From an uncultured bacterium (GTDB lineage: Bacteria; Oederibacteriota; PGYV01; CAWJRG01), in contig CAWJRG010000010.1 of NCBI GenBank assembly GCA_963845185.1, forward strand, positions 192,001 through 256,000: a stretch of 64,000 nt of DNA. The letters are read 5' to 3'. Shown here piece after piece: positions 23,373 through 44,023 of this stretch. Under the pieces are notes generated by a model. That model was not told the DNA's origin and did not search any database. It saw only the letters and a list, made by a program, of their open reading frames with translations. Positions within the stretch are counted from its first letter, which is position 1; the number at the start of each line of letters is the position of its first letter. A program made the position numbers and the translations under genes.

Positions 23373-23381
23373 ATTGCTCCT

Positions 23382-23771: not shown

Positions 23772-23887
23772 AAGTTACTTGCCCCACCCTCTCTCTGGCT
23801 TTCCCCCGTCAAGGGGGAGAGAATTCTTTATATTTGTTTTCATACTTCCCTCTCCTTCTTTTTGCGGGTGAGGGCCAAGGTGAGGGT
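23403..23887. repeat. Three BoxC-like purine/pyrimidine hairpin repeats around the DUF559 gene (23403-23443, ~23781-23822, 23848-23887)
   Basis: CCCTCTCCC...GGGAGAGGGccGGGGTGAGGG motif and its inverse. Confidence 0.75.
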
Positions 23888-26482: not shown

Positions 26483-26516
26483 AATCAGCCTCTTTTCTTT
26501 AATTTGATATATATAA

Positions 26517-26545
26517 AGTATAAATTAAAACCTGTGCAATGTCAA
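26517..26545 (-). promoter_or_regulatory. sigma70 promoter of the LVIVD gene
   Basis: TTGACA-N17-TATACT. Confidence 0.65.
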
Positions 26546-26577
26546 TAAAACTGCAATATTTGGTTGTGTACACTATT

Positions 26578-26803
26578 GTGTGTAATTTCAAAACCAAACA
26601 GACTCTCGCCCCTTGTTGAGTTAAATAGTCTGGTAGACTATTTAACGGGTAGAAGTCATTTATAATTTAAAATATGCTTTTCTACCCAAGAGTAAGAGAG
26701 AGGGGGCGGAGGAAATATAGGAATTATCACCCTCACCCTGACCCTCTCCCGTCAAGGGAGAGGGGTTTCTCTTTCTAATTATAATAGAATTGAAATTACA
26801 CAC
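26578..26803. mobile_element. MITE-like element E, copy 2 (inverted), with element C inserted at 26619-26687
   Basis: Perfect 14-bp TIR GTGTGTAATTTCAA / TTGAAATTACACAC. The reverse complement aligns with 22347-22500 apart from the ~69-bp C insert. Confidence 0.7.
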
Positions 26804-26842
26804 TAATAACGACAGTATCGCAATATTTCAGGATTTTTCATT

Positions 26843-26870
26843 GTAGAGACACGCCATGGCGTGTCTCTAC
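26843..26870. repeat. GTAG-type REP palindrome
   Basis: Perfect 28-bp palindrome GTAGAGACACGCCATGGCGTGTCTCTAC. Confidence 0.7.
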
Positions 26871-26939
26871 TTCATTTTGTTGAATATTAGACAACGAAAA
26901 CGGTTAAAAGTTGCGTAATCCCCCTTACTTATAAAAATC

Positions 26940-26970
26940 AAAAACCCGCAGCTAAAACGAGCTGCGGGTT
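26940..26970 (-). terminator. Intrinsic terminator after the 27000-30560 gene
   Basis: Minus strand AACCCGCAGCT-loop-AGCTGCGGGTTTTT. Confidence 0.7.
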
Positions 26971-26999
26971 ATGGCCTTTACCCTCTTTCCTCTCCTGAG

Positions 27000-29900
27000 T
27001 TATCTCAATATTATAATTGTATCCGGCTCGGAAATTTCCGTTTTGCCGTTGTTATCCGTTAAAATCACATAATAATATGTCCCGTCGCTTAAGTCGTTAA
27101 GCTCTCCCGGTTCAAAGTTCAAATAGCCCTGTGTTATTATCTGCTGCATTTGGGCTCCGTCGAAAACAAATTGTTTCACCAGCCTGAAAGATACTGTATA
27201 TATTTTTACAGTCACCCTGTCAGTTCCCTGGGTAAAATAATAAAGGATTGTCAATCCCGGCCATTTGCCCGGATTTACAGGATTGGGATACGGCCTCGGC
27301 TTTTTATGAGGCGGCGCGGGAGTCGCGGTTGGCGTAACCTGCTGGATATTAAGCGTTGGTGTGCTGGTCGCGCCTGCAATTTGCTGAGTCTGGCTGGCTG
27401 TCGGCGTGATAGTCACTGTCAGGCTCGGGGTCAATGTCATGGTCGCCGTGTATGTATATGTCGGTGTAACTGTAAATGTACTTGTCGAACTTGGGCATAT
27501 ATGATTTACGTTTATTGTATTCGAGTTAACTGTAACCCCCGCATATGAAATGCTTGCCGTATTCGGCCATGTCATGCACCAGTATTGGGAACTCAGGTAA
27601 TAATTCTCGACTGTATATGTAAAATCCTGGCAGGAGTTTGCCGCAAAACCACTTGGCCATGTCAGAGAAAAATTAAAACTGCCGTTTGATTCATTTGGCC
27701 CCATGCTTCCGTTGGATACGCCATATGGCCCTGAAAACTGGTCGTCAGCTGTACTATTCCACGAGTCTGTCAGTAAAACCTGGTTGACTGTATATCCGCC
27801 TGTGTTGCATATATGCAGGGCAAAAGTTATTATATTTGCCGCGTTTATATCCGTCATATCTGCGCTGCCCACTACAGTTTTATTTATTGTAAAAATCGGC
27901 GGCATCGACTGGGTAGTTGTCATTGTAGGCGTTTCAGTCGGCGTCGTTGAAGCTGTGCACCCGCAGGGTACTGTAGGAGTTATTGTATATGTCGGCGTAA
28001 CAGTCGGTGTATTTGTTAATGTTGATCCCGGCGGTACCTGGGTGAATGTCACAGTCGGTGTCGAGCACGCATCCTGCATAATGACCGTGGATACAGGCGA
28101 AGCAGCCTGCCCCGGGTAAATCAGCGAAGCGTTGTTGTTCCAGTTGCACGTGTTAATATGCTGGTTGTTTGTCAGCCACATCTGCCATGTATAGCATCCC
28201 ATAAATCCCCCGGGCGTAGGCACTATTGACACCGTGCTAATGCCATTGTTTGTGTTAACATTTATTGTTGATATTCCATTTGCGTTTATGTTTGTATTAT
28301 TATTCCAGTTAAACTGCCAGCCGTCTGCATTATCGCTCGACCAGTCGTCAATAATGGTAAAATTCTGTGTAGCTCCGCCGCTGTTGTTGCAGAACACAAG
28401 GTTGAATGTAACAATATCATTGGTAGTATTTATTATCGTTTTGCTGGATGTTTTGGATATTGTAAATGCCGGCGTTGTTGTCGGCGTCACTGTCGGCGAT
28501 ATGCAAATTATATTGAATACTGTTTGATTTGAAAATTCAGGTACAATATTTGTCGCGCCTATGCCGCCGACATTTGTAAAACTCTCGGCGCACGCTGACG
28601 TGGACGCCCACCATGTGTATGAGCCGCTTTGGTCGCTTATGTTGCCGAGTTGCCAGCTTACCGGGCTTGTTCCGCTCGCGCCAGGGCTTGACCCCTGATA
28701 TGTCAGGCCTGTCGGTACCGTGTCGTACAACACCGCGTTTGCCGCTACCCTCGGTACTAATATCATAAAATTATTATATGAGTCCTGTACCGTGCCATTG
28801 CCATCGCCAGACTGGTTACCTACTCCGGGCCTCCAATCAGTATATGTGCCTGTGCCTGAGCAGTTAAAGTTCGCGTTTGACGCTGCTCCTGTATCTGTCC
28901 ATGAAACCTGGTACCCTGCCGGCTCAGGCTGCCCGATTTGCCATACTTTTGCATTAAATATATAATCAGTTCCGTTTGTTGTCATATATGTCTTTGTCCT
29001 GTACCATGTATTTCCGGTTATTGTTTGCGAGCTTGAAGCTCCTCCATATATGCAGGCCATACCTCCTCCGCATCTCTGTATGGCCAAATATCCGTCCGAA
29101 GGTGCTGTATCCATTGATAAAATCAGACTGTAACCGTAATTATTAGCGCCTGTCTGTCCATTGTCCCTTAAAATCACCAGGCCGTCTGCTCCGGGATATG
29201 TGCCAGGGTTTATGAAAACATCTGCTTCAACAATGCCAGTGCATATCTGCACATTTGAAGGCGTAGGGTCATCAAGCAAAAGCGCCGGGTATGACGATGA
29301 CTGGCCAGCCCCAGTCAATATCCTGTCTCCTGAATTGCACGGGTCTGATATTGTCCATGTCCCATTGTCGGTATTATAAGGCATTAATTTCCACCCTGAC
29401 GGAGGCGTGGTTGAAGAAGTCCCTGTCGCTGTGTCGTCAAATGCCCTGTATACCTTGAGCTGGTCGCCGTTTACCTGGTAATTGAGATAATATGTTATCA
29501 TAACCGAAGAGCTTGGCAGTTTCATGAATGTGCTCACGCTCTCCAGTTTTTGCACTGATATTGCCGCCTGCCCAACTATCAAAGTTGCTGATGCGCTCGC
29601 GTTGGTACTACCGCTTGTCCCTGTTGCAGTGTTCGGTATTGACGTGCCTGACGCCATTGCCGTTGTCATCATCATCAATATCCATACTGTCCCTGACTTC
29701 ATATATGTCGATGTTGGAAACGTCCATGTTACTGTGCCTGTTGTGGCTCCTGCCACAGGTGCGCTCACGCTTCCACTGTTTATTGAGCTTGGCCCGACTG
29801 ATACCAGGGCAAGGCTTCCGCCTCCGGGCAGGGCATCCGTAATTGTAAGCGGCCCGTTGCCGTATGTGTAGTCTATTGAAAATAATACCAGGTCACCTAC

Positions 29901-30560
29901 GTTCTGCAATACTCCCTCTGCCCTTTTATCCAGTGTAATTGAATTTGCGGGCGGCGTTGGCAGCGGCCAGCCTAATACCAGCCCGGAACCGTTTGGACTG
30001 CATGCGCCGTTTGTTAAAGCAACCCAGTTGCTTCCTCCAAAATATGAACTATCTGCGCCTATGAGCAGATTAAGGTTAGTCGCGCCGCATGCTGTCCCCA
30101 TCTGCTGTGCGCCCGGCATTGTCAGGGTATATGTTTCTGTAACCAACATTCCACTACCCGCGCCGCCGCAGTCATTGCAGTTCTGGACAAACGGTGACGG
30201 CATTGGCAAATTATAGCCAAAATTCATGCCACTGTTCGCGTTATTTGGGTTTGCGTCGGGAATATTTATACCGTCGCTGCTTATTAAGAATACCTGGCCT
30301 CCTGTATTGGGAGGCTGGAAAGCACTGCTCGTGCTCGCAGCAACAAGCAGTTCATTAGGGATAGAATACTCATCTATACACATATTAATATTTAAAATAA
30401 ATTGCTGTTCCCAACCCGGGTTTGAAGGTATTATATTTGCTGAAATTATTTGCGGGGAGTTTGCGTAAACCAAACTGCCTGATAATAAAAATGACAATAT
30501 GACAAGGCAAAAACTGAAGGCTTTTATTTTTTGAGGCTTTTTATTTGCGGTCGTTTTCAA
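27000..30560 (-). CDS. Secreted DUF11/Ig-repeat + lectin-like adhesin paralogue 1, Thr-rich, type-1 CTD
   Basis: Homologous to the 30668-34372 and 37870-41015 genes; DUF11-like TITDALP/YDTVP/TISKT motifs; YPNP..SDGTYYYV..IILR tail. Start reassigned to TTG 30560 (GGAG RBS, promoter at 30600-30628). Confidence 0.7.
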   Translation of the reverse strand: MKTTANKKPQKIKAFSFCLVILSFLLSGSLVYANSPQIISANIIPSNPGWEQQFILNINMCIDEYSIPNELLVAASTSSAFQPPNTGGQVFLISSDGINIPDANPNNANSGMNFGYNLPMPSPFVQNCNDCGGAGSGMLVTETYTLTMPGAQQMGTACGATNLNLLIGADSSYFGGSNWVALTNGACSPNGSGLVLGWPLPTPPANSITLDKRAEGVLQNVGDLVLFSIDYTYGNGPLTITDALPGGGSLALVSVGPSSINSGSVSAPVAGATTGTVTWTFPTSTYMKSGTVWILMMMTTAMASGTSIPNTATGTSGSTNASASATLIVGQAAISVQKLESVSTFMKLPSSSVMITYYLNYQVNGDQLKVYRAFDDTATGTSSTTPPSGWKLMPYNTDNGTWTISDPCNSGDRILTGAGQSSSYPALLLDDPTPSNVQICTGIVEADVFINPGTYPGADGLVILRDNGQTGANNYGYSLILSMDTAPSDGYLAIQRCGGGMACIYGGASSSQTITGNTWYRTKTYMTTNGTDYIFNAKVWQIGQPEPAGYQVSWTDTGAASNANFNCSGTGTYTDWRPGVGNQSGDGNGTVQDSYNNFMILVPRVAANAVLYDTVPTGLTYQGSSPGASGTSPVSWQLGNISDQSGSYTWWASTSACAESFTNVGGIGATNIVPEFSNQTVFNIICISPTVTPTTTPAFTISKTSSKTIINTTNDIVTFNLVFCNNSGGATQNFTIIDDWSSDNADGWQFNWNNNTNINANGISTINVNTNNGISTVSIVPTPGGFMGCYTWQMWLTNNQHINTCNWNNNASLIYPGQAASPVSTVIMQDACSTPTVTFTQVPPGSTLTNTPTVTPTYTITPTVPCGCTASTTPTETPTMTTTQSMPPIFTINKTVVGSADMTDINAANIITFALHICNTGGYTVNQVLLTDSWNSTADDQFSGPYGVSNGSMGPNESNGSFNFSLTWPSGFAANSCQDFTYTVENYYLSSQYWCMTWPNTASISYAGVTVNSNTINVNHICPSSTSTFTVTPTYTYTATMTLTPSLTVTITPTASQTQQIAGATSTPTLNIQQVTPTATPAPPHKKPRPYPNPVNPGKWPGLTILYYFTQGTDRVTVKIYTVSFRLVKQFVFDGAQMQQIITQGYLNFEPGELNDLSDGTYYYVILTDNNGKTEISEPDTIIILR

Positions 30561-30599
30561 GTTTCGCCGTCTCCTTTGATGTTTCCTGCCCTTATACAT

Positions 30600-30637
30600 A
30601 TTATATTGAGTTCCCCCATCTCTGTCAATGGGGGAAC
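30600..30637 (-). promoter_or_regulatory. Consensus sigma70 promoter overlapped by a perfect 10-bp inverted repeat (candidate operator)
   Basis: TTGACA(30628-30623)-N17-TATAAT(30605-30600); GTTCCCCCAT-N8-ATGGGGGAAC at 30610-30637. Confidence 0.7.
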
Positions 30638-30667: not shown

Positions 30668-33600
30668 TTACCTTACAACCGCCACCTTTTCAGTTACTTT
30701 GCACTGGCCGAGCCGTATATAAATCAAATATATGCCTGAAGCCACGGTCTTGCCGCTGTCATTGGTTCCGTCCCAGGAAGCATTCACATCCCCGCTTTCC
30801 TGGTCGTTTGCGATTGTTTTTACCAGAATGCCGTTTCTGTCGTAAACTATTATGACTACGCTCATCTGCGTATAAAGCGAATAATGGATGGTCAGGTATT
30901 GGCCCTGCGACGGATAAATAATATTCTGAAATAATGTTATAGTTTGGCACGGCATTTGGCTTGTAGCCGGCGTTGGTTGAATCACAAGAGTTGGCGTTGC
31001 TGTCACAGTAGCCGTGGAAGTTATGGGTGTAACTGGATATGTCGCAGATGTTGTCGGCGTATTTGTGGCAGTCACTATTGGCGTCAATGCAGACGTAAAA
31101 GTGGCTGTAGGCGAACATACAAAAAAGGACGCGCCGGATATTGCGCCCTGGCTGTCCATGGCAGTGTTTACGATAGTGCCCGAATTTGACGTCACCTGTC
31201 CCACCCATGCTGCAACGCCGCTCTGCCCTGGCCCAAGGGGGTTTGAAAAAGTCCAGTTTATGACACCGGCATTATTACTCCCGCTGCCGCTTATTGACAC
31301 TACATTCATTTGAGCCGGTATCGTGTCCCATATAGCATAAGCGTTTATTGTAGTTGCGCCGACATTAATGTAACTTATGCTGTATGTCACCAAATCGTTC
31401 AAGCCTGCGCACGCCGCGCTCGCTGTTTTTGTGATTGACGTGGCCCCGGTTATATTCTGTGTATTTGTAACCGTCGGGGTTGATGCCGTAGTTGCCGTAT
31501 CTATCGGCGTGTATGTCCCTGTCACGGTCGGCGTGTTTGTTTGCGTCCATGTCGGCGTCGGAGTGCTCGTGGATGCGTTTGTCACTACCAGTGTCATTGT
31601 CCATGTTGGCGTATATGTATATGTCGGCGTGTTTGTCCGTGTCCATGTCGGCGTGCTTGTTGATGTGCCTGATAGTACAGGCGGCGGAGTAAATGTTATA
31701 GTCATAGTATATGTCTTAGTGACTGTTGAAGTCACCGTATTCGTTGATGTGCCTGAAATTGCGGGTGTCGGCGTCCAGGTTGTCGTAATAGTATACGTCT
31801 GCGATGGCGTAGGCGATGTTGTCAATAAGCCGGTGTTTATTGTAGGTGAAGGCGTAACTGTGAATATAGAACAGTTATCTGACAAAATCACCGTGGATAC
31901 AACCGACGGCTGCCCGTTCCAGGCAAGCGATGCGTTGTTGTGCCAGTTGCATGTATTGTTGGATTGCGCGTTCCCTATATACATCTGGAATGTAAAGCAC
32001 CCCGTAAACCCTGTGGGCGTCGGTTGAAATATAAATTGTGTCCATTCCGCGCTCGGGACGCCGATGTTGGCTGTCAGGGAATATATTCCGTTGCCGACAG
32101 GGGACGTGTAATACGGGTTTAAATACTGCCACTGGTCGCCAGAACTGCTTGACCAGTCGTCATAAACAGTAAAAGCCTGCGTCACTGCGCCACTGTTGTT
32201 GCATATTACAATGTTAAAAGTAAGCTGGTCTGTGTTAACGATATTTGTTGTTTTGCTGGCTGTTTTTGATATTGTAAAATTCGGCGTAGGTGTAGGCGTC
32301 ACTGTGACTGTCGGCGACGCGCATACCACGTTGAAAACTGTCTGGTTTGAGAATTGCGCTGCCGGGCCTCCTGATTGTGTTCCCGAGATGCCTGCTACAT
32401 TTGTAAAGCTCTGGTTGCACGCCGAAGTGGATGCCCACCACGTATATGAGCCGCTCTGGTCGCTTATATTTCCAAGGTTCCATGTCAGCATGCTGCCGTT
32501 CTGGCTTCCAGCCGGATTTGACCCCTGATATGTCAATCCTGCGGGTATCGTGTCAAAAAGCGCAGTATTTGCCGATACCCTGGTATTGTATGTCATAAAA
32601 TTATTATATGAGTCCTGCGTTGTGCCGTCCTGATCGTTTCCCTGCTCGCCTACGCCGGGCCTCCAGTCTGAGTTTGTTCCGCCGTGGTCAGGGCATTCCC
32701 AGTTCGGGTCTGTGTTTGATGTAGTGTCTGTCCATGTAAGCTGGTATGCTATCGGTTCAGGCTGGCCCACCTGCCACACTTTTGCCTGGAAAGTAAAGCC
32801 GTTTCCGCTTATCAATATTTTTACCCTGTACCATGTGTTGCCTGTTAGGGCAAGTGATGCTGGGTCAACATAAGCGGGCCATGAGCATGTCCCTCCTCCG
32901 CATTTCTGTATGCCAACATACCCGCCTGAAGGAGCAGTATCTATTGACAGAAGCAATCCGTATTCGTAACCGGCGTTTCCGGTTAGTCCGTTGCTGCGGA
33001 TTATTATAAATGCGTCCGAGCCTGTATAATTGCCCGGATTTATCATTACATCGGATTCTATTATTCCAGAATTGCACATCTGCACATTCGCTGGCGTCGG
33101 GTCGTCCAAAAGTAAAGCAGGATATTTCATGGGTGCCGAAACACTGCCTGTTATTATCCTGTCGCCTGTGTTGCACGCGTCGCTTATTGTCCATATGCCG
33201 GTCTGACCGCTTCCGTCCATATCAGGAAGGAATTTCCATCCCGGCGGCGGTGAACTGCTGTATGCCCCGTTTGCTGCATCGTCTAACATCCTTATTGCCT
33301 TTAATACATTTCCGTTTATCTGGTAATTCAAATAATATGTTATCGTAACTGTGGAACTTGGCAGTTTTAAAAATGAATTAATGCTTTGTTCTTTGTCCAG
33401 CGACAGTCCAACCGTGCCCACTGTAAGGTTCGCCGTAGACGAGCTGTTGGCTGATCCGTTTGTGCCTGTTGCCGTGTTTGATATTACCGTGCCTGTCGCT
33501 ATTGCGCATGTCATTTGCAGCAAAATCCAGACCGTGCCTGACTTGGTATAAGTCGTGCTCGGCATTGTCCATGACACTGTGCCTGAAGTGGAGCCGAGCG

Positions 33601-34372
33601 CAGGAGCGCTCACGCTGCCGCCCGATGGCGCAGGATTCGGGCCGTAGTCAATGAGAGCAAGGCACCCTCCGCCCGGTATCGGGTCGGTTATTGTCGCGCT
33701 TCCGTTGCCATATGTGTAGTCAACCGAGTAAAGCACTTTGTCTCCGACAAGCGCGAGCGTGCCCTGCACGTTCTTGTGCACGCTTACCGACTGCGCCGGC
33801 GTCGGTATCGGCCAGTTTAATGTTTGATAATCGCACACAGGCATAGCGCTGCTCCAACTCATAATGTTATTTTCAAAACCAGCAATCATGTTTAAATTTG
33901 TTATGCTGCTTCCGCATGATGCGCTTCCCATGTCGGCCGCATTCGGCATTGTAAGCGTATACTGTGCTGTTCGCATCATCCCGCTGGTTGAGCCGCCGCA
34001 TTCCGCGCAATTAGGGAGAAAGGGGCTTGGTATGGGTATATTGTAGCCTATATTTCCCGCCGGATTCGGATTTGTCGAATGGACATCAATGCCAAGATTG
34101 CTTACCAGGAATACCTGGCCCGCTGTGTTTATTGCTTGCGGCGTGCTGCTTGTGCTTATTGCGACATCCAGGGCTCCGGCGTTATACTGGTCTATGCAAT
34201 ATGAAATATTAAGCTCGAATTGCTGCCCCCATCCTGGATTCGTAGGATTCATTGTTGCCGAGATTATGCCGTCAGCTTCTAATATGGAAGGCATAAACAG
34301 GAATGATAAAATGATAAGGAATAAACTTCCGGTTTTTACCGCTTCTATTTTTTTATCTGTCATCGTTTTCAT
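30668..34372 (-). CDS. Secreted DUF11/Ig-repeat + lectin-like adhesin paralogue 2, Thr-rich, type-2 (FlgD-Ig-like) CTD
   Basis: Same passenger as paralogues 1 and 3; tail QNIIYP..IHYSLY..VYDRNG.LVKT..WDGTNDSG.TVASGIY..KVAVVR. Confidence 0.75.
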   Translation of the reverse strand: MKTMTDKKIEAVKTGSLFLIILSFLFMPSILEADGIISATMNPTNPGWGQQFELNISYCIDQYNAGALDVAISTSSTPQAINTAGQVFLVSNLGIDVHSTNPNPAGNIGYNIPIPSPFLPNCAECGGSTSGMMRTAQYTLTMPNAADMGSASCGSSITNLNMIAGFENNIMSWSSAMPVCDYQTLNWPIPTPAQSVSVHKNVQGTLALVGDKVLYSVDYTYGNGSATITDPIPGGGCLALIDYGPNPAPSGGSVSAPALGSTSGTVSWTMPSTTYTKSGTVWILLQMTCAIATGTVISNTATGTNGSANSSSTANLTVGTVGLSLDKEQSINSFLKLPSSTVTITYYLNYQINGNVLKAIRMLDDAANGAYSSSPPPGWKFLPDMDGSGQTGIWTISDACNTGDRIITGSVSAPMKYPALLLDDPTPANVQMCNSGIIESDVMINPGNYTGSDAFIIIRSNGLTGNAGYEYGLLLSIDTAPSGGYVGIQKCGGGTCSWPAYVDPASLALTGNTWYRVKILISGNGFTFQAKVWQVGQPEPIAYQLTWTDTTSNTDPNWECPDHGGTNSDWRPGVGEQGNDQDGTTQDSYNNFMTYNTRVSANTALFDTIPAGLTYQGSNPAGSQNGSMLTWNLGNISDQSGSYTWWASTSACNQSFTNVAGISGTQSGGPAAQFSNQTVFNVVCASPTVTVTPTPTPNFTISKTASKTTNIVNTDQLTFNIVICNNSGAVTQAFTVYDDWSSSSGDQWQYLNPYYTSPVGNGIYSLTANIGVPSAEWTQFIFQPTPTGFTGCFTFQMYIGNAQSNNTCNWHNNASLAWNGQPSVVSTVILSDNCSIFTVTPSPTINTGLLTTSPTPSQTYTITTTWTPTPAISGTSTNTVTSTVTKTYTMTITFTPPPVLSGTSTSTPTWTRTNTPTYTYTPTWTMTLVVTNASTSTPTPTWTQTNTPTVTGTYTPIDTATTASTPTVTNTQNITGATSITKTASAACAGLNDLVTYSISYINVGATTINAYAIWDTIPAQMNVVSISGSGSNNAGVINWTFSNPLGPGQSGVAAWVGQVTSNSGTIVNTAMDSQGAISGASFFVCSPTATFTSALTPIVTATNTPTTSATYPVTPITSTATVTATPTLVIQPTPATSQMPCQTITLFQNIIYPSQGQYLTIHYSLYTQMSVVIIVYDRNGILVKTIANDQESGDVNASWDGTNDSGKTVASGIYLIYIRLGQCKVTEKVAVVR

Positions 34373-34422
34373 ATTTCACTTTCTCCTTTAGCGCTCCCTG
34401 CCTTAATTCAACCCTATGCCCT

Positions 34423-34450
34423 TTAGACAATTTATTTCTGTTTTTGTTCC
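34423..34450 (-). promoter_or_regulatory. ECF (sigmaE/W-type) promoter
   Basis: GGAAC-aaaaacagaaataAATT-GTCTAA (17-nt spacer). Confidence 0.75.
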
Positions 34451-34515
34451 AACTATTTTGATTAATTTTAGTCCCACATAACCCTTAATATTCAACGGAA
34501 CCCTATATTTCCACA

Positions 34516-34556
34516 TAAAAATAAAAATCCGCGAAACATTTTAGCCGCGGATTTTT
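34516..34556 (-). terminator. Intrinsic terminator downstream of the GH8 gene 34689-37739
   Basis: Minus strand AAAAATCCGCGG..loop..TCGCGGATTTTTATTTTT. Confidence 0.6.
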
Positions 34557-34688
34557 GCCTTTATCCCTTCCCTCCCGTAAGATAATTTTCAATTTCCAAT
34601 TTTCAATTATTTTCAATTTTATTAACAACCTTCAATTTCTTTAAGCCTTTCAATCCAAAAATCTACATTCTTAAATCTAAAACTATAT

Positions 34689-37600
34689 TTATCTTATAAC
34701 CGCCACTTTTTCTTTTCTTTCGCATTTGCCGAGTTTCATGTAAAGCAAATATATGCCCGAACTTACTGTCTGGCCATTGTCATTGGTCCCATCCCACGAA
34801 ATATCCCAATCCCCGTTTTCCCGGTCTTCTGCAATTGTTTTTACCAAAATGCCGTTCCTGTTATAAACCTTTATAACCACATCCATCTGTGTATAAAGCG
34901 AATAATGTATTGCCAGGTATTTGCCCAGCCCCGGGTAAATAATATTCTGGAAAAGTGTTAAAGTCTGGCACGGCGACTGGTTCGCCGGCGGCGCGCCGAC
35001 ACTCACAGGCGTCGCTGTTATTGTAACTGTTGCAGTCAAAGTTGCAGTAGTGACAGGCGGCGTGGCCATTGTCTGCGTAATAGTGGCTGTCTCCAATTGC
35101 GTCAATTCAGGCGTAAAGGTGGTTGTTGCCGATTGCGTTATTGCCATGGTTGCCGTATCTACCGGCGTATTTGTCGATGTAGCTGTTGTTGTCGCGCATG
35201 TGAACAGGTTGCTCGACGCTGACGCGCTGGTCATCACTGCTCCGTTAACAGCGTCTGTTCCGCTTGCAGTCCCGCTGAATGTCATATTGTTGCATATTAC
35301 AATATTATATACCCAGGTAAATGAGGCTCCTGAACCCGCTGCAATCGGTGTGCTCGCAGGGCTTACCCCGGAAACAATAACAGCAGCTCCCCCGCCGGAT
35401 TGTGATAAACTTGACGGCACCACGTTATTTGCTGTATTTGTTCCTGTATTTATCACCTGCATCACAACTGTTATATCCTCTTCGGACGAGGCACTCGCCG
35501 GCAGTATGGTAATACTGCTTATTGTAAGATTTATCGCTATTGTTGGTGTTGTTGTCAATGTCATTGTAGGCGACTGCGTCATTGGCATGGTTATCGTGTT
35601 TGTAGGAAACGGCGTGCATGTGGATGTGCCTGTGCCAAATACCGGAGTCAATGTAATGGTCACCGTGCATGTAGGCGTAACAGTAAAAGTCGATGTACTT
35701 GTAATATTCGGCGTGGCTGTCCATGACATTGCCGGCGTGTATGTCGGCGTTACTGTAAATGTGCATATGCAGGGCGGCGGGGTAAATGTCGGGGTTACTG
35801 TGCGCGTCGATATTGGCGTCGGCGTCCATCCCAGGCTCGGATAAAACCCCACGTCGTCTATTGATAAATCAACACCATGCCCGAAATCATATGTCTGCCA
35901 GTTTATCTGCAGCAGGTTTTGCAATACCAGCGTTAAGCTTACGCTTGTCCCCCATCCTGTTTCCTGCGTCAGGTCCGAAAACGGTATCTGCATTTGCGAC
36001 CATACAGTCGGCGGGAGAAATGTATATTTATAGTCGTTGGATCCTGTGCTTGTAACCGATGCCGGCGCAATAAACCTGATGCTGTACTGATGAATCCCGT
36101 CTCCTTTTACTGCCATTATAAATCCGGTAAAACCGCTGACATCCCTTGTTGTAATAGTGCTCGCGTCAACATTTGTCCCAAGGCCGACGTATGGATCAGT
36201 TTCTGCCGCCGGGCAATTAGGCGCGTTGTTGCAGCTGGCCGGACAATATGTTATATAAACATATCCGGTTACCCTGGCGCAATACGCCGTGCCGTACGGG
36301 CTTCCTGCCCAGCCGGGTGATGACATTACAAACGTTGCGCCTTGCTTTGGCCATACCGTGGTTGTATCATTTGCGCAAGTTGTTGTGCCGTAATACGAAT
36401 ACCACATGCCTCCCCAGTTATTTATCGCATTCCCATCCTCAAATGAATCAAGCAATGCCACTGGAACCAAATGCGTTGCTGTCGGCGTAAATGTCGGCGT
36501 CGCGCACATGCAGGTATCCCTTAAATCCCAAAGATTCCCTGTCATTAAAAGCAGAGACAATATCTGCCACGAGTCGGTGTAAAATGAGTTCGGCGCAAAA
36601 CTTCCTGTTTCTGTGCAGTAATTATTCAGGACTGACTGGTAACTTCCTGTCGCATTCCTCATGAAAGAACACCCTATGGGCCCTGTGAAACAGGCGTTGT
36701 GATTGGTTCCAATTATATTTCCGCTTGATACTGTATATCCGTCCTCTATTGCCGTGGCTGATACCCCGCTGAAAAATCCTGATATGTCCGCCTGTTCAGA
36801 CCCGGTGTCTACTCCATTCCACGAATAATATAACTCGAATTTCCATGGCACCCTGCATGAATTATATAAATAATCCAACCCGTTGCATGGGCCGTTTCCT
36901 CCGCTGCTGCACGGGTCTCCGTTCTCCACTGCGCCTCCCGACAAACACGAATCTCCTATCAGCCCGTTTGCCGGGTTCCTCGTTGCTCCCGCCATCCATG
37001 CAATCATTGAAGCCAACACGCTGTTCCATTTAGCCGAGTTTGTCGTGTCTACGTTTGCCCATATATAATAATATGCAGGGTCCCAGTATGACGGGTAATA
37101 CCATGTATTCCATTGGTCCCCCGGGTTTACGGCAGAGTTACCTGAATCTACGTCGTGTGCCAAAACATACCCTTCTTCCGTAATTGCCTGGGTTAATATG
37201 CTTGCATCGCTGTTGCCCGGCGACGGCCCAAATTGCCACGCTGCCATTAACACAGAAAATGCTATATCTTCGTCACCATCTGTTTCTGAATCTGCCGGGC
37301 TTGCTTTGTTGCTTCCGTCTGAATTCAGGTTCCATACCATGAGATTGTTTGAATCAAGATGAAATTGCATATAACTCCATAAATTATTAAATGTCGTCGC
37401 GTCTCCAAAATATACCGCCATCAGCATCCCGTATCCTATTCCCTCTGAAGTTGTGTCATTGCTCTGGTCCGGCCTCATCACCCGCTCGTAACCGTTGGCC
37501 CCGGAAGTCGAAATGTAATGTACCTTCCACGTGTTGTACAGGTTTAACAGGTTTGTATTGTTGTAACTTGTCGAGTATATCCCGTATGGATATGCATGGT

Positions 37601-37739
37601 TTATCGGAAATGGGAAATTGGCGTTTGTGTTGGTGATTATATTTGCGCCAAATGCCTGGCAGGACAGGATAATTATAAAAAACAGGAATATTCCTGCTTT
37701 TTTTATTGCTCTGGCCTCTTTATAGGTTTTTATATTCAT
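34689..37739 (-). CDS. Secreted GH8 glycoside hydrolase + CIA30/CBM11-like + Thr-rich linker + Ig domain + type-2 CTD
   Basis: DTTSEGIGYGM, SETDGDEDIAFS, YNSCRVPW; tail QNIIYP..WDGTNDNG..SSGIY..KVAVIR. Confidence 0.88.
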   Translation of the reverse strand: MNIKTYKEARAIKKAGIFLFFIIILSCQAFGANIITNTNANFPFPINHAYPYGIYSTSYNNTNLLNLYNTWKVHYISTSGANGYERVMRPDQSNDTTSEGIGYGMLMAVYFGDATTFNNLWSYMQFHLDSNNLMVWNLNSDGSNKASPADSETDGDEDIAFSVLMAAWQFGPSPGNSDASILTQAITEEGYVLAHDVDSGNSAVNPGDQWNTWYYPSYWDPAYYYIWANVDTTNSAKWNSVLASMIAWMAGATRNPANGLIGDSCLSGGAVENGDPCSSGGNGPCNGLDYLYNSCRVPWKFELYYSWNGVDTGSEQADISGFFSGVSATAIEDGYTVSSGNIIGTNHNACFTGPIGCSFMRNATGSYQSVLNNYCTETGSFAPNSFYTDSWQILSLLLMTGNLWDLRDTCMCATPTFTPTATHLVPVALLDSFEDGNAINNWGGMWYSYYGTTTCANDTTTVWPKQGATFVMSSPGWAGSPYGTAYCARVTGYVYITYCPASCNNAPNCPAAETDPYVGLGTNVDASTITTRDVSGFTGFIMAVKGDGIHQYSIRFIAPASVTSTGSNDYKYTFLPPTVWSQMQIPFSDLTQETGWGTSVSLTLVLQNLLQINWQTYDFGHGVDLSIDDVGFYPSLGWTPTPISTRTVTPTFTPPPCICTFTVTPTYTPAMSWTATPNITSTSTFTVTPTCTVTITLTPVFGTGTSTCTPFPTNTITMPMTQSPTMTLTTTPTIAINLTISSITILPASASSEEDITVVMQVINTGTNTANNVVPSSLSQSGGGAAVIVSGVSPASTPIAAGSGASFTWVYNIVICNNMTFSGTASGTDAVNGAVMTSASASSNLFTCATTTATSTNTPVDTATMAITQSATTTFTPELTQLETATITQTMATPPVTTATLTATVTITATPVSVGAPPANQSPCQTLTLFQNIIYPGLGKYLAIHYSLYTQMDVVIKVYNRNGILVKTIAEDRENGDWDISWDGTNDNGQTVSSGIYLLYMKLGKCERKEKVAVIR

Positions 37740-37786
37740 ATTTCACTCTTTCCTTAACGTTTCGGCTGTATTTAACTCAATACTAT

Positions 37787-37814
37787 TTAGACAATTTTAA
37801 ATTATTTTTGTTCC
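37787..37814 (-). promoter_or_regulatory. ECF promoter
   Basis: GGAAC-aaaaataatttaaAATT-GTCTAA (17-nt spacer). Confidence 0.75.
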
Positions 37815-37869
37815 AATTTTTTCCATTTATTTACATGCAAAAATCTGCATTCTAAAATCTAAAGCTATA

Positions 37870-40800
37870 TTATCTTATAACCGCCACTTTTTCCGTTCTT
37901 TCGCACTGGCCGAGTTTCATGTAAAGCAAATATATGCCCGAACTTACTGTCTGGCCGCTGTCATTGGTACCGTCCCAGGCAATATTTATATCCCCGTTTT
38001 CCTGGTCGTCCGCGGCTGTTTTTACCAGGGTGCCGTTCCTGTTGTAAACCTTAATAACCACGGCCATCTGCTTATAAAGCGAGTAATGAATGGACATGTA
38101 TTTGCCTTCTCCCGGATAAATAATATTCTGTAGCAATGCTATTGACTGGCACGGCATTTGTTCGTTCGGCGGCGTAGGTTCAACCACAAGCGTCGGCGTA
38201 ATTGTGGGCGTTACTGTTGCCGTAAAAATTACAGGGGTACTTGTCAGCGTGGCCATTGTCTGCGTAATTGTTGCCGTCGGTGGCTGCGTCAATACTGATG
38301 TAAAAGTGTTTGTCGGTGTGCATATTGTAAAGGACGCGCTGGACATTGTCCCTGCGCTGTCCATGGCAGTGTTTGTAATATTGTCTGTGTCTGATATTAC
38401 TATGCCTGTCCAGGTCACAGAGCCCTTGTTTCCCGGCGCAAGCGCGGTATAAGTCCAGTTTATGACATTGCCTGTATTATTTCCGCCGCCGCTTATTTCC
38501 GACACATTCATTTGCGCCGGTATGGAATCCCATACTGTATAATTATTTATTGTAACCGCGCCAACATTAATAAAACTTATGCTGTAAGTCACCATATCGT
38601 TCAAAGCCGCGCAAGCAGCGCTTGCTGTTTTTGTCATTGATGTGGCTGCATTACCTGATATGGCCTGTGTAATTGTGACCGTCGGCGTAACTGTCATGGT
38701 TGCCGTATCCATGAAAGTCGCTGTCCATATCATGGTCGGTGACAGCGTCGGCGTGAATGTCAATGTTTCGGTTGATGTTATCCATATTATGGTATTCGTA
38801 TATGTCGGAGTAACAGTAGCAGTTGATGCACTTGTAACCACAGGCGTCGCTGTTGTCGTCACTTGTGGAGTCGATGTTATGGTCATGGTAAATGTCGGTG
38901 TCGCAGTGAACGAAGGTGTGGCAGTACTCGTGAATGTCGGCGAAATGCATAATACATTGAATGCTGTCTGGTTTGAAAATGCCGCGACCGGGTCCCGGCG
39001 CCCAATCCGGCAATACCGGCGACATTTGTAAAGCTCTGGCCGCACGCCGATGTCGTTGCCCACCAGGTATATGACCCGCTCTGGTCTGTTATGCTGCCCG
39101 GTGTCCAGTTTACCATGCCACCTGACAATGTTCCTGCCGGGTTTGAACCCTGATACGTCAGCCCTGTTGGTACCGTATCATATACTGTTGTGTTTGCCGG
39201 TGTCCTTGGTATTAATACAAAGAAATTATTATATGAATCCTGCGTGCTGCCGTCCTGGTCGTTTCCCTGCTCGACTACACCCGGCCTCCAGTCTGTATAT
39301 GTAGCGCCTGCGCCGCAGTTAAAATCAGTGGTTGCCGCGCCTGTGTCTGTCCAAGCGAGCTGGTACGCTGTCGGCTCAGGCTGGCCAACTGCCCACACCT
39401 TTGACTGGAACACATAATCATTGCCGTTTTGTGTCATCCATGTCTTTGTCCTGTACCATGTATTTGCGGTTAATGTCAGCCCTGTCGGATTTGCCGCTGC
39501 CGGCCAATTGCATGAACCCGAGCCTGTGCCCTGGCATTTCTGATAAGCTATATAACCGTTTGCCGGAGCCGTGTCCAATGATAATATCAGGCTGTATTCC
39601 CGTAAATTTGTATCTGTATAACCATTGCTCCGTAAAATTATCAGGGCATCAGCTCCCGGGTAATCGCCGGGATTAATCATGGCGTCTGCTTCAACTATGC
39701 CCGTGCATACCTGAACATTGGCAGGAGCCATGTCGTCCAAAAGCAGCCCCGGATACATCGCATTTCCTGTAACACTTCCTGTTATAATTCTATCGCCTGT
39801 TCCGCATGTATCTGATATAGTCCACGTGCCGTTATATGTTCCCTGAGGCAGGAATTTCCATCCCAGCGGCGGCGAGCTTGAATATGACCCTGTTGCAGTA
39901 TCGTCAAACATCCTTACTGCCTCGAGCCGGTCGCCGTCTATCTGGTAGTCCAAATAATATGTTATTGTCACCAAATCGCCTGGCAGTTTCATAAATGTAT
40001 TAATGCTCTGTGTTTTCTGTAATGCAAGCGAAGAACTGCCAATTGTAAGTGACGCCGTAGATGAGGCTACTGCCGCACCGTTCGTACCCGTGGCTGTGTT
40101 TGCTATTACCGTGCCTGTCGCTATCGAGCACGTCATCTGCAACAGCATCCATACTGTTCCGCTTGTGTTGTAGGTTGAGCTCGGCATTGTCCATTGTAAT
40201 GTGCCTGATGTTGAGCCTGTTGCAGGTGCTGATACGCTGCCTCCTAAAGGCGCAGGGTTTGGGCCGTAATCAACAAGCGCCAGGCATCCTCCGCCCGGCA
40301 TTGGTTCGCTTATTATGGCAGTGCCGTTGCCATATGTATAATCAACTGCGTAAAGCACCAGGTCTCCAACCTGCGCCAGCGTGCCTTCAACCCTATTATT
40401 AACGCTCACCGAGTATGCCCCCGGCGTAGGCAATGGCCATGACACTACGGTCATTTCACAGCCGGTTAAAGCAGGCCAGCCTCCCGATGAACCTTCGAGG
40501 TCATACTCTGCCGTGCCTACAAGTAAATAAAGTGTGTTTACGCTGCACGCTGATGAGTCAAGGTCGCTTTGATTTGGCATTGTAAGGTTATATTGCAGTG
40601 TGCGTAATCCGCCGTTTGAACCCCCGCAATCAGTGCATGAGTCCTCATTATATGCGACATTTGACACTGCCTCATACCCAAGTTCCCCTCCCTGCCATAA
40701 ATTCTGATATGTGCTTTTAACATTTACTCCGCCCACGCCGACAAGAAAAATCTGCTTTCCCGAACCCGGCGTTGATGGCGTGTTCTGAGTGCTGATTGCC

Positions 40801-41015
40801 ACAGCTATGTATGCACCCCCGCTGTCCTCATCGCATATCTGCATTGTCAGGATAAAATCCTGCCCCCATCCGGGATTTGCAGGGGACATTGATATGGACT
40901 CGATTTTGGGCCCTGCTGCATATATTGCTGTATATAATATGGAAATAAACGCTGATAATATTAGAATTATTTTTATTGCAGTTGTTTTATCTAGTTTTCC
41001 TGCGGCCTTTCTCAT
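37870..41015 (-). pseudogene. Secreted DUF11/lectin-like adhesin paralogue 3 with type-2 CTD, split by a 1-nt frameshift near 38994-38996
   Basis: ORF 38883-41015 matches the paralogues up to FTNVAGIAG; ORF 37870-39063 resumes at PVAAFSNQT. Adding one G (GGG to GGGG) joins them. Confidence 0.8.
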
Positions 41016-41061
41016 CTTTCTTTCTCCTCAATGCCCCCTCCTTTATTTGCTCACTACCCTT

Positions 41062-41089
41062 TTGGACAATTTATATGTTTTTTTGTTCC
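41062..41089 (-). promoter_or_regulatory. ECF promoter
   Basis: GGAAC-aaaaaaacatataAATT-GTCCAA (17-nt spacer). Confidence 0.72.
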
Positions 41090-41120
41090 AGTTTTTATTA
41101 ATCCTGAATTTGCAGTGTTC

Positions 41121-42026
41121 CTAAAAATTCCAGTCCAGGCTTAGCCTGTGCGTGTCGCCCAGGTTGCCAAAAGGCTGGTAAGCGTATGACAGCATTGCCT
41201 TTTTTTCTATCAGGAACCCGAGGCCTACCGATAAATTATTGTCGCTGTGCCGCAGCCCGAACCCCATCCTCAAATATACGATGTGATAAAAACCGCCTTC
41301 AACGCCCATGTCGAGAGTGGGCAGGTCATTGCTCACCATCAGCCTGTTTACGTCCAGGGCGGCGGTCAAATCAAAAAAATCAGTAAAGGTGTTTTTTAAC
41401 CCGAACCCGGCTTTTAAGTTCAATGGCAGGGTGTCCGGCACGCTGATATACGCAGTCTGGTACCCTATATTCTGCAGCGCCAGCCCGATAAAAGTGTCGG
41501 GATTGCTGTTCAGTTTCATCAGCATTCCCGCGTCCGCGGCAATGCCTTTTTTTGAATATTTATAAAGCTGGCTGAAAAAATATTTTAAATTCGCGCCTGC
41601 GGAAATGCCAGGCGCCAGTTCATAACCGTATGATGCAGTCAGCAGCATGTCGTAATTGTTCACTTTCCCCACTACGTTTCCGAAGCTGTCAATCTGGTCA
41701 AAATTATAAGTGCTGTCAAATAAAAGGCTTGCCCCAAACGTGCCGAGTTTCACGCCGCACGGCATTGCATAGCTTAAATATTCATAATCGGTGTCGACAA
41801 AAGAGGCAAAATGGGTAAGTGATATGGTTGATTTTGATACGTATGCCAGGCCAGCGGGGTTAAAAAGCGGGCCGTTTGAATCGTCGGCAATAGCGCAGAA
41901 AGCGTCGCTCATGGCAGCCGTACGCGCCGGAGGTTCTATCCTTAAAAAATCAGGGCCTACTGTCCCTGTCGCTAATACCAGGCACGGCAGGATAATAAGC
42001 GCTGTAACCGCGGAAAACTTTTTCAT
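41121..42026 (-). CDS. PorV/PorQ (UPF0164)-family outer-membrane beta-barrel
   Basis: Signal peptide, FLRIEPPARTAAMSDAF.AIADD....FNPAGLA signature, alternating barrel strands, C-terminal aromatic LSLDWNF. Confidence 0.8.
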   Translation of the reverse strand: MKKFSAVTALIILPCLVLATGTVGPDFLRIEPPARTAAMSDAFCAIADDSNGPLFNPAGLAYVSKSTISLTHFASFVDTDYEYLSYAMPCGVKLGTFGASLLFDSTYNFDQIDSFGNVVGKVNNYDMLLTASYGYELAPGISAGANLKYFFSQLYKYSKKGIAADAGMLMKLNSNPDTFIGLALQNIGYQTAYISVPDTLPLNLKAGFGLKNTFTDFFDLTAALDVNRLMVSNDLPTLDMGVEGGFYHIVYLRMGFGLRHSDNNLSVGLGFLIEKKAMLSYAYQPFGNLGDTHRLSLDWNF

Positions 42027-42129
42027 TCAGTATAGCTCCCCATGGGATTCAACGTTGTACGGGCTTGGAACCGGTTATTGCAAAATAAATTTTTTGTATC
42101 TGCCCTTGATAAGGATTATTCTACCAGAT

Positions 42130-43119
42130 TTATTTTACAATGCAAACCTTTCTTTTCGTCTCCACAAGCCCGGTCTTTATGTATATCACGTAAATCCCGG
42201 CGCTCACCTGCGCGCCAGTATCGTCGTAGCCATTCCATGAATCCTCATATATCCCGGTTTCCCTGAACCCGGATTCTATCGTTTTTATCGGTTCGCCCCT
42301 CCTGTCATATACTTTAATCAGGATTTCCGAAGGCTGCGCCACTTTGTACTGCACGGTTACGCTTTCGCCTTTTTCAGGGTTAATGACATTGTTTTTTATC
42401 TGAAGGTCTTCTTTCATCTCTTCCTCTGTCGGCGTCTTTTGTACTTCCGCCGCGCTTACGCTGTTTCCGCTTTCAACTGCAGCCCCGGACCGCTGTTGCG
42501 CCGCGCCCGTGTTAACCTGCTTTCCTGCCAGCGCCAGCGATATATGCGGCACAGCCTGGCCGCCCTCATTTTGCGTGACCGCGGCCTCTTTTGCCTGCGT
42601 TGTCTTGTTCCCCTCTGCTTCCTGCTTTTTTGCTTGTGCCTGTTTATTTTCAGCAACCATCTGCTTTTCCTTGGCTGCGGCCTCCTGTTTCTTTGGCTGA
42701 GCAGCTGCCTGCAAAACCGGCATTTTTTTCTGTGCTGCTAAAGTCTGGGGCTTATTCGCCTGCGCAACCTTTTGCCCCTGCGTATTTGTGCTGAACCTGA
42801 CGCCAAAAACCAGTATTAATATCACGGCGAGCACTGCCGCGGCTGCCTGAGGCACCAGCGGCCTCTGTAATATGGATTTAACAGCCCTCTGCCATGTCAC
42901 GGGCGGCTGCTCTTTCAGCCTCAGCCACACAGCGTCGTTAAAATCCAAAGGGATGTTTACCTTTTCTTTTTCACGGAAAGCGGCTTTCATTTTGTTTATT
43001 ACGCTGAATTCCCTTGCGCACGCAGGGCATTCCCGCATGTGCTCCAGGGCATTTTCATTTAATGCTTTGCCTTCCGTGTATTCCTCTAATATCTTTTTAA
43101 ATTCCCTGCATTTCATCAC
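42130..43119 (-). CDS. Zinc-binding anti-sigma factor with TM helix, Q/A/K-rich linker and C-terminal FlgD-Ig/type-2 CTD
   Basis: MKC..EH MREC PAC (HxxxCxxC); TM AAAVLAVILILVFGV; tail NNVINP.KG..V.VQY..KVYDRRG..IKTI..WNGYDDTG.QVSAGIY..KVCIVK. Start overlaps the sigma stop codon. Confidence 0.8.
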   Translation of the reverse strand: MMKCREFKKILEEYTEGKALNENALEHMRECPACAREFSVINKMKAAFREKEKVNIPLDFNDAVWLRLKEQPPVTWQRAVKSILQRPLVPQAAAAVLAVILILVFGVRFSTNTQGQKVAQANKPQTLAAQKKMPVLQAAAQPKKQEAAAKEKQMVAENKQAQAKKQEAEGNKTTQAKEAAVTQNEGGQAVPHISLALAGKQVNTGAAQQRSGAAVESGNSVSAAEVQKTPTEEEMKEDLQIKNNVINPEKGESVTVQYKVAQPSEILIKVYDRRGEPIKTIESGFRETGIYEDSWNGYDDTGAQVSAGIYVIYIKTGLVETKRKVCIVK

Positions 43120-43697
43120 TTATCACCAAGTTTTTCCATGAGCCTTTTCCTCAGTTTTTCCCTCGCGCGCCACAGCTTTGATTTTACGCTGCCAACCGGC
43201 ATTTTCAATATCTTTGCCATCTCCTCGTATTCCATTCCTTCAATGTCCCGCAGTATCACCACTGATTTTTCCTCAGGCTCCAGGTTGTCAACTTCAGCCA
43301 TTATCACGGCACGTGTTTCTTTCGTTTCCATTTCCTCGTCCGCGAGCTGGTTTGTGTCTTTTACGTCAACCTGCCTTTCATTGTCTTCCTCGTCCGCTGT
43401 TAAAGAACCGGTTTCAAAAAACCTTCTCCTTTTCAGGAAGGTCCTCCTGTTCAGGCAAATGTTAACCGTTATCCTGTAAAGCCACGTTGAAACTTTTGAC
43501 TTAAACTCAAAGCTTTTTAATTCGGCATACGCCTTGCAGAAAACCTCCTGCGCGATATCCACCGCCTCGTCCGTGTTCCTCATGTACCTGTAGCAGAGTT
43601 CTGTAATGCGCTGCCTGTAAACTGTTATTATCCTTTCAAATATCTTTTTATCGCCTTTTTGCGCTTTTTTAATCTCGCTAAAATTCACTTCTTCCAT
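43116..43697 (-). CDS. ECF RNA polymerase sigma factor (SigW/RpoE-like)
   Basis: DIAQEVF, STWLYRITVN (region 2); LRDIEGMEYEEMA..GSVKSKLWRAR (region 4). Confidence 0.92.
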   Translation of the reverse strand: MEEVNFSEIKKAQKGDKKIFERIITVYRQRITELCYRYMRNTDEAVDIAQEVFCKAYAELKSFEFKSKVSTWLYRITVNICLNRRTFLKRRRFFETGSLTADEEDNERQVDVKDTNQLADEEMETKETRAVIMAEVDNLEPEEKSVVILRDIEGMEYEEMAKILKMPVGSVKSKLWRAREKLRKRLMEKLGDK

Positions 43698-43716
43698 TTA
43701 TTCCTCTTCTGCCTCT

Positions 43717-43744
43717 TTTGACAATTTTTAGCCGGAAAAGTTCC
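43717..43744 (-). promoter_or_regulatory. Autoregulatory ECF promoter of the sigma/anti-sigma operon
   Basis: GGAAC-ttttccggctaaaAATT-GTCAAA, about 20 nt upstream of the sigma ATG. Confidence 0.78.
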
Positions 43745-44023
43745 AATTATTTTCATATTTTTTGGTTTAACTCCGGCTTTGGCCCCAATTATATAATAAA
43801 ATCGGCATTTTGTAACAGTTTTTTTGCGATGCCGGAAATACCGTATTTGCCTTTTTACTGCCGGCGCGTTGCCCCGGCAGTAAAATTTGTCTTTTCTGAA
43901 AAACCTTTTTATGCTAATATATGCGTGCTGTTTTGGGGCGTTTAATCCCCCGGGCTTTGTGCCCGTGAGACTCTAAAAATTAAAACCATTGGCTTTGTCA
44001 TTTATTATATGGAAGGAGCTTGA

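Follow-up and report, generated by a model that had tools for sequence, protein, structure and literature searches.

A conserved ECF sigma/anti-sigma circuit whose anti-sigma factor ends in a secretion-type tail, and its possible link to a type IX-like export pathway

What is a tail of the kind that ends secreted proteins doing on an anti-sigma factor? The question is raised by positions 30668 to 43744 of a 64,000-nucleotide stretch of DNA (the window) from contig CAWJRG010000010.1 of an uncultured bacterium of the phylum Oederibacteriota (assembly GCA_963845185.1; here genome G000, 3.5 Mb, 99% complete, 11 contigs). Here, genes for an extracytoplasmic function (ECF) sigma factor, its anti-sigma factor, a barrel related to PorV and PorQ of type IX secretion systems (T9SS) and three large secreted proteins (cargo) follow one another, and the anti-sigma factor carries a C-terminal domain (CTD) of the cargo type. 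Sequence comparison and structure modelling suggest that this is a conserved, apparently unpublished circuit with a credible link to secretion; that it works as a switch in which a secretion tag is the sensor and export is coupled to release of the sigma factor is a reading on which we are evenly balanced. The locus reads as follows, in the direction of transcription.

43788..43816, minus strand: sigma-70-like promoter (10 of 12 consensus positions), lying upstream of the ECF promoter and a candidate for the basal expression of the operon
43717..43744, minus strand: ECF-type promoter GGAAC-N17-GTCAAA, putative autoregulatory site, from the motif scan
43116..43697, minus strand: ECF sigma factor of 193 amino acids (aa), subfamily S1, with Sigma70_r2 and r4_2
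42130..43119, minus strand: anti-sigma factor, 329 aa, with zinc domain (C4/H27/C31/C34), transmembrane (TM) helix 89-109, low-complexity linker and C-terminal tail 238-329
42133..42408, minus strand: anti-sigma tail, modelled as an immunoglobulin (Ig)-like beta-sandwich resembling T9SS CTDs (predicted local distance difference test, pLDDT, 92-96)
41121..42026, minus strand: PorV/PorQ-family 14-strand outer-membrane barrel, 301 aa (NF033709 match)
41062..41089, minus strand: ECF-type promoter before cargo 1, from the motif scan
37870..41015, minus strand: cargo 1, DUF11/Thr-Pro-rich secreted protein with the shared tail, frame-split into two open reading frames (ORFs)
37787..37814, minus strand: ECF-type promoter before cargo 2, from the motif scan
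34689..37739, minus strand: cargo 2, 1016 aa, GH8 glycoside hydrolase with a CBM11/CIA30-like module, Thr-Pro stalk and shared tail
34423..34450, minus strand: ECF-type promoter before cargo 3, from the motif scan
30668..34372, minus strand: cargo 3, 1234 aa, DUF11/Thr-Pro-rich secreted protein with the shared tail
30600..30628, minus strand: perfect sigma-70 promoter (12/12), an internal control; it serves the paralogue that follows cargo 3 (27000 to about 30560)

Exploring the anti-sigma sequence, we found that its N-terminus matches RsiW (E 2.9e-8, PDB 5wuq) and that it has the makings of an RsiW-type zinc anti-sigma factor: an H-x3-C-x2-C domain, a single helix and a gene placed directly after that of the sigma factor, the stop codon of which it overlaps with its start. 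H27, C31, C34, N244 and four tail residues are invariant in 25 aligned sequences. The structure model predicts a helical zinc domain, helix 89-109, then a linker without structure and a beta-sandwich modelled with confidence, in keeping with the original prediction of a membrane-anchored anti-sigma factor that presents a cargo-like tail on a long linker (~130 residues). This combination of zinc motif, helix and FlgD_ig-type tail, for which a search had been proposed, recurs in 66 of the 77 homologues of 400 aa or less, a set from which long repeat proteins among the top matches had been put aside; eight of the other 11 have no zinc motif, two are cut short and one falls under the helix threshold. 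The eight (P0109, P0114, P0119, P0126, P0128, P0135, P0137 and P0076; about 280-300 aa, with helix and tail and no zinc motif as called) are either a zinc-less subfamily or the product of late start calls. The linker measures 90-180 residues with a median of 131 (n=66), and a fully extended linker of this length is longer than the periplasm is wide. Near full-length matches were present in 23/23 same-order genomes among the matches listed, and the layout was confirmed in 9 genomes of other orders as well. One homologue (P0024) is from Candidatus Goldiibacteriota, described in the accessible part of PMC7031533 as cellulose degraders with many GH8 and CBM11 domains. Of 16 loci from an ECF-seeded contig scan, one was relevant; inspection by eye revealed no such tail on the gene after the sigma gene in the remaining 15. 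The best ESM Atlas matches (0.83-0.85) are Bacteroidota CHU_C proteins of 360-390 aa, which we regard as leads.

The circuit is found in two forms. S1, the form in the window, has the order sigma, anti-sigma, barrel, cargo and is present in 15 of the 24 genomes of the order, and S2, with the order barrel, sigma, anti-sigma, cargo, occurs almost universally. In both, the barrel gene adjoins the sigma/anti-sigma pair and the anti-sigma factors bear the same tail subtype; of 38 barrels, those of S1 and S2 are the closest paralogues of one another. In G000, S2 lies at C5:181226-183806 (L031) and its anti-sigma tail changes frame; all of 9 further S2 loci have barrel, sigma and anti-sigma, with the tail intact.

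The tails of the anti-sigma factor and of the three cargo proteins all score above the FlgD_ig cut-off. Identity is 71-79% among the cargo tails and 33-38% between these and the anti-sigma tail, other tails of the window reaching 20-28%; the earlier statement that one ~90-aa domain ends all four proteins thus stands as to subtype, and the tails are not near-copies. A profile of anti-sigma tails scored above 60 bits on 19/19 cargo tails at S1 loci vs 3/154 in the background, and the bodies of the S1 cargo are diverse (DUF5122, DUF11, CARDB, LRR, PQQ). In a tree of 230 tails (101 columns, the broken S2 tail of G000 excluded), 18 anti-sigma tails, 22 S1-cargo tails chosen by gene position and 4 tails of PQQ genes chosen by similarity form an exclusive clade with a weak support of 0.667, or 0.861 with two more tails. 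A structure search with the modelled anti-sigma tail returned the PorU C-terminal domain on top (Z 10.7, root-mean-square deviation 2.5 over 87 residues), with the CTDs of NucA (Z 9.2) and mirolase (8.5) and PorZ (9.1) among the other solved matches; a separate search with the anti-sigma model gave PorZ as the best. As modelled, the tail is a C-terminal beta-sandwich like those of solved type A CTDs.

The gene between anti-sigma and cargo had been taken for a PorV/PorQ-like barrel, and this is borne out by NF033709 (156.8 bits vs a cut-off of 90) and by a 14-strand FadL-like fold. It is not PorV proper, with 69 bits on NF033710 (cut-off 250) and 89 on the PorQ model (cut-off 220). The best folds for the barrel model are 8gl6_F and 6h3i_F, both with a template-modelling score of 0.78 and both from T9SS structures; we take chain F of each to be PorV. 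A complex model of barrel and tail had been called for, and in it the anti-sigma tail is predicted to dock on outer loops of the barrel encoded next to it with a score of 0.91 vs 0.01 for the best control, at least 96% of contacts being common to the runs and the partner pLDDT being at least 87; the mark used is reached by 116/157 solved complexes and 2/215 mismatched pairs. Strand alternation counted from the C-terminal Phe suggests that the contacted loops face outside. In PorV itself, according to the accessible part of PMC10994853, CTDs bind the outer loops inside the SprA pore and are loaded without energy. We read our model as evidence of likeness to solved PorV-CTD pairs, rather than of binding or of barrel specificity.

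The regulatory side of the locus begins with a sigma factor of about 190 aa that has regions 2 and 4 only, as ECF sigma factors do; it is above cut-off on TIGR02937, and SigW is the closest named model, below cut-off. The motif GGAAC-N13-AATTGTCHAA is exact at all four window sites, all on the minus strand and 19-50 nucleotides upstream of start codons; at up to 2 mismatches no further site was found in the window, the chance expectation being 0.57, and none of 100 shuffles reached four. The claim that one motif with one 17-nucleotide spacer precedes the sigma gene and the three cargo genes is therefore sound. Its reading as an ECF promoter, putatively autoregulatory and common to sigma and cargo, is likewise supported by a footprint conserved across the order: of 13 same-order relatives, 11 have GGAAC-N17/18-G(T/A)C before the S1 sigma gene, another has GAAAC there and the last has no site, and an ECF-type site lies before the first cargo gene in 7/7 same-order S1 loci. 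In other orders, such a site precedes sigma at 4/9 loci. Several relatives also have a TATAAT box at a position similar to that of the candidate basal promoter. The spacer of S1 sites in relatives is mostly 18 nucleotides; spacer length was considered as a divider between targets and rejected, as 0/16 further 18-nucleotide sites lie directly before a shared-tail gene and several lie before other-tail cargo or nothing obvious. Counts of this pattern in genomes with and without S1 are to some extent circular and were set aside.

To what extent does the motif follow the tail? Across G000, GGAAC-N17-GTCHAA occurs at 28 sites, vs 1-9 for each of the other spacer lengths in the range 12-23 and 12 for the reversed control. 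A first gene could be assigned at 24 of the 28, and 10 of these 24 are tagged with a sorting-type tail (p 3.6e-7 vs 160 of 2720 crudely called genes). The four tails nearest to that of the anti-sigma factor are all linked to the motif, frame-split cargo 1 having been added by hand from the window scan, while none of the next 20 is; three of these four genes are tandem paralogues, and the result therefore amounts to about two independent events. The fourth belongs to a remote motif-headed operon, a 149-aa gene followed by a PQQ-propeller protein with the shared tail, which recurs in 3/3 relatives examined. However, 15 of the 19 motif-linked cargo genes carry tails of other subtypes, and four lipoproteins and another barrel are also downstream of the GGAAC motif. 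A shared tail thus implies the motif and not the reverse, and the original prediction, which equated the regulon with the cargo that has the anti-sigma factor's tail, is not supported: with 28 sites genome-wide and mixed tails among the linked genes, a regulon of shared-tail cargo only is rejected. The proposed scan hence came out in favour of enrichment before tagged genes, with the motif extending beyond the expected tail class. No motif was seen before sprA in the site listing of G000.

Some observations stand beside this regulon. The first gene of the remote operon (G000:C10:720482-720931; L032) encodes a conserved secreted protein of 149-150 aa of no known family. At G000:C1:283473-286971 (L102, L107), the motif heads a conserved operon with two barrels, both outside a cargo context: a PorV-like barrel comes first, followed by a gene that by its N-terminus reads as sugar-ABC-ATPase-like, by the second barrel and by a large enzyme. 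The complete genome G027, of another order (L056, L066, L077-L080), has 22 motif sites vs 6 for the control and two tail-bearing anti-sigma factors, and several of its sites lie before tagged cargo with mixed tails. For one motif pattern, 27 sites were counted in G000 vs 0-11 in same-order relatives.

The second circuit bears on whether S1 alone reads these sites. A sister motif, CGAAACTT...TTGTC, occurs at 17 sites with spacer 17 and at none with spacers 13-16 or 18-21. It lies between the S2 sigma gene and the S2 anti-sigma gene in 7/7 loci and then, as a prediction, in 9/9 new ones by eye; strict patterns had caught 3 of these 9. It is present also in genomes without S1. Because of this second circuit we regard S1 as the probable, not certain, reader of the window's sites, which the S2 sigma factor may also read. 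Taken jointly, the GGAAC and sister motifs precede 43 genes, 24 of them tagged (p 1.6e-19). The frame change in the S2 tail of G000, if real, could explain the many promoter sites of this genome. G000 contains two more ECF pairs (C9:567374-568841 and C5:760289-761935), the anti-sigma factors of which have a long extracytoplasmic CBM11/CIA30-like end, with a GCAAC-type box upstream.

What could the tail engage? G000 has 160 ORFs with a sorting-type tail (two of them the anti-sigma factors), 38 PorV-like barrels, 10 ECF sigma factors and one SprA-like gene. The latter encodes 2145 aa (TIGR04189 E 3.6e-54, 183.7 bits vs a cut-off of 200); a SprA-like match was found in 60/61 genomes, 4 of them above this cut-off. 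A SprA-like pore in a non-Bacteroidota phylum agrees with the earlier claim of T9SS-like parts outside Bacteroidota, and in the proposed search for sprA, porKLMN and porU this is the part that gave matches, most of them below cut-off. In the rest of it, the PorU sortase model NF033707 was above cut-off in 0/5 genomes, its G000 matches being confined to the tail region, C25 domains were present in 8/61 genomes, GldK gave weak partial matches at most, and the motor components, to which we return below, were not found by searches whose positive controls gave no match either. The SprA-like gene (G000:C9:181574-191457; L050) has N-terminal fn3-like domains and is followed by a gene for a 1136-aa tagged protein, with a tail just outside the anti-sigma clade, which is possibly a dedicated translocon partner.

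We propose that the anti-sigma tail is treated as cargo, entering the SprA-like pore and binding its own PorV-like carrier at the outer loops. Export could not be finished because the protein is held in the inner membrane at its opposite end; a tail that reaches the outer loops only via the pore while anchored in this way would therefore be a stalled substrate. Capture or pull would lay the linker open to a first cut, RseP (present in 5/5 genomes) would make the second, and the sigma factor would be freed. A candidate cleavage site is offered by a loose V-x-A-A motif (window 42450-42500, anti-sigma residues about 221-225), which lies 15-25 residues ahead of the tail. The freed sigma factor would then transcribe its own operon, yielding more carrier, together with the matching-tail cargo and the remote operon of the 149-aa protein and PQQ propeller, and probably also a wider set of cargo and lipoproteins in common with S2. 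With release dependent on capture, cargo synthesis would thus be licensed by a working pore and carrier, and the signal would be damped as free cargo competes for that carrier. The parts, their conservation, the promoter footprints and the tail subtype come from sequence and the placing of the tail on the loops from modelling; the remaining steps we infer. The earlier term "FlgM-like checkpoint" fits in logic only, as the inhibitor is membrane-anchored and cannot leave whole, which makes export-triggered proteolysis, at roughly even confidence, the likelier route of release. More tentatively, and short of even confidence, the system may be a checkpoint of motorless SprA-based secretion, with a membrane-tethered decoy as sensor that is captured in the pore and cut, its two circuits running about a fifth of the ~160 tagged genes.

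Several results weigh against this proposal. Although S2 anti-sigma factors have the same tail subtype, 0/5 cargo tails at S2 loci match the anti-sigma profile. Close cousins of a true partner also pass the complex test, and the complex score may reflect likeness because PorV-CTD complexes are already solved. A genome-wide code matching carriers to tails was sought and dropped, barrel similarity and neighbour-tail similarity showing no signal (r 0.11, p 0.11, n 26). Generic Ig domains match the anti-sigma tail at Z 9.8 and below, trailing the best T9SS match by no more than about 1 Z, and on TIGR04183 the tail reaches 18 bits, under the type A cut-off of 23 (cargo tails 14-21; one orthologous anti-sigma factor, at 35.1, is above it). 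The V-x-A-A-like motif is just about 2-fold enriched (42/66), and no site-1 protease was identified. GldM was found in 0/61 genomes, GldN in 0/61 and GldL in 0/5 (one at E 0.088), with positive controls that likewise gave no match, and no motor that might pull on the tether was thus found.

Of the other explanations, the one that survives best, though we think it unlikely, is an envelope-spanning surface sensor of the Dma type, in which the tail stays on the barrel and an external cue (polysaccharide, surface contact or membrane strain) triggers cleavage. The layout, a sigma-binding N-terminus, a helix, a long disordered linker and an outer-membrane end, is that of Dma1 as given in the accessible part of PMC10927553; linker lengths keep within a narrow range, and glycanases and surface proteins are the targets. 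Yet besides the tag the tail has no recognisable ligand-binding module, and a linker through the outer membrane would presumably have to occupy the single SprA-like pore, for which there is one locus. We consider it improbable that the tail is an ordinary periplasmic Ig domain for sensing or stability, borrowed from a neighbouring gene and making no contact with the export machine, with barrel and cargo as mere targets. FlgD-like Ig domains are indeed very common (255,379 matches at E <= 0.001) and occur as internal repeats, and the top PDB sequence matches are FlgD, but the placement at the extreme C-terminus with a cargo-type last strand in 25/25 aligned sequences, the grouping with cargo tails and the adjacency of the barrel in two different gene orders all argue otherwise. 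Quite improbable, finally, is the inverse logic of titration or stress, in which a tail bound to its partner at rest is displaced by excess unsecreted cargo and sigma is freed when export is saturated or blocked: S1 would co-transcribe its own barrel, two other barrel genes carry motifs and the S2 promoter directly before the anti-sigma gene in 16/16 loci is a feedback layout, but 24 of 43 first genes are cargo, which would worsen a jam, and no motif was seen before sprA. Targets that are cargo and carriers, with none seen before sprA, fit the export-coupled switch, on when export works, better than a response to a jam.

The surroundings of the locus offer an internal control. The paralogue after cargo 3 is 54% identical to it over cargo 3 residues 1-865, and the two tails are 25% identical; the same body with another tail and a predicted sigma-70 promoter makes a neat comparison. 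Cargo 1 and cargo 3 are paralogues of each other as well, and the frame of cargo 1 changes near 38970-38990 (ORFs 38883-41015 and 37870-39063), where tblastn with cargo 3 also switches frame; the split may be real or an assembly error, and a frame change in 1 of 87 conserved loci indicates that errors do occur. Elsewhere in the window, 13863-30599 encodes four further tagged proteins, GH8-malectin and LVIVD repeat ones among them, whose tails are of another class; two of the four have strong sigma-70 boxes. At 755-5484 lie genes for two type II/IV secretion ATPases that contain MshEN domains.

Is the circuit new? To our knowledge, matching of type IX secretion to cargo synthesis is known only via the indirect PorA-PorXY-SigP route. 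If the export-coupled reading is true, a link from pore to sigma factor in one protein would be a new signalling design for type IX-type secretion and a second solution to the problem of FlgM, and, since capture cannot be without effect, the circuit's promoters would serve as reporters in the search for the missing energy source. With small parts, a promoter predicted at base level and a modelled barrel-tail interface, first tests are possible without culturing the organism. A literature search, with most subscription journals outside its reach, returned no paper on a CTD-bearing anti-sigma factor. The term anti-sigma is absent from PMC10202324 and PMC12618676, and neither FlgD nor CHU_C is mentioned in the main text and one supplement of the ECF classification PMC7826278, other parts of which may bear on the group. 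T9SS-tagged proteins are described in a review as restricted to Bacteroidota (PMC10202324), a phylum outside which the present circuit lies.

Like Dma, the circuit has an ECF pair, a cytoplasmic sigma-binding domain, one inner-membrane helix, a long disordered linker and a proposed proteolytic release; unlike Dma, which ends in its own 8-strand outer-membrane barrel, the anti-sigma factor here has no such C-terminal barrel and ends in a soluble beta-sandwich tail, the 14-strand carrier being encoded by a separate gene, and it is found outside Bacteroidota. With RsiW and SigW it shares the H-x3-C-x2-C zinc domain, the helix and SigW as the best named sigma model, and RsiW-type anti-sigma factors undergo two-step proteolysis; the sigma factor is below the SigW cut-off, and the extracytoplasmic part is here a secretion tag on a ~130-residue tether. 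As with FlgM and sigma-28, the inhibitor is predicted to control the substrates of a secretion machine while itself bearing that machine's export signal. FlgM, however, is a soluble anti-sigma-28 factor exported whole by the type III system, whereas the present protein has a TM helix and an ECF partner and would have to be cut. In the PorA-PorXY-SigP pathway of Porphyromonas gingivalis, as is proposed here, a CTD-bearing protein influences an autoregulated ECF sigma factor tied to type IX secretion, but PorA is described as a free surface protein that works by a two-component route on T9SS machine genes (PMC7712824, accessible part), whereas in the present circuit a single polypeptide is both tag and inhibitor, with cargo as its targets. 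The SprA-like pore, PorV-fold barrels and CTD-fold tails recall the PorV/type A and PorP-SprF/type B pairs of the T9SS as set out in the accessible parts of PMC10994853 and PMC12618676, and carrier genes lie beside cargo genes as in those pairs (26 of the 38 G000 barrels were used as pairs); unlike known T9SS, there are 38 PorV-like paralogues, and motor, ring and PorU were not found. Each of Dma1, RsiW, FlgM and PorA thus shares one aspect with the present circuit and none is identical to it; what is new here is its phylum-wide conservation, two circuits with distinct promoters, a footprinted regulon with its limits, and the complex model.

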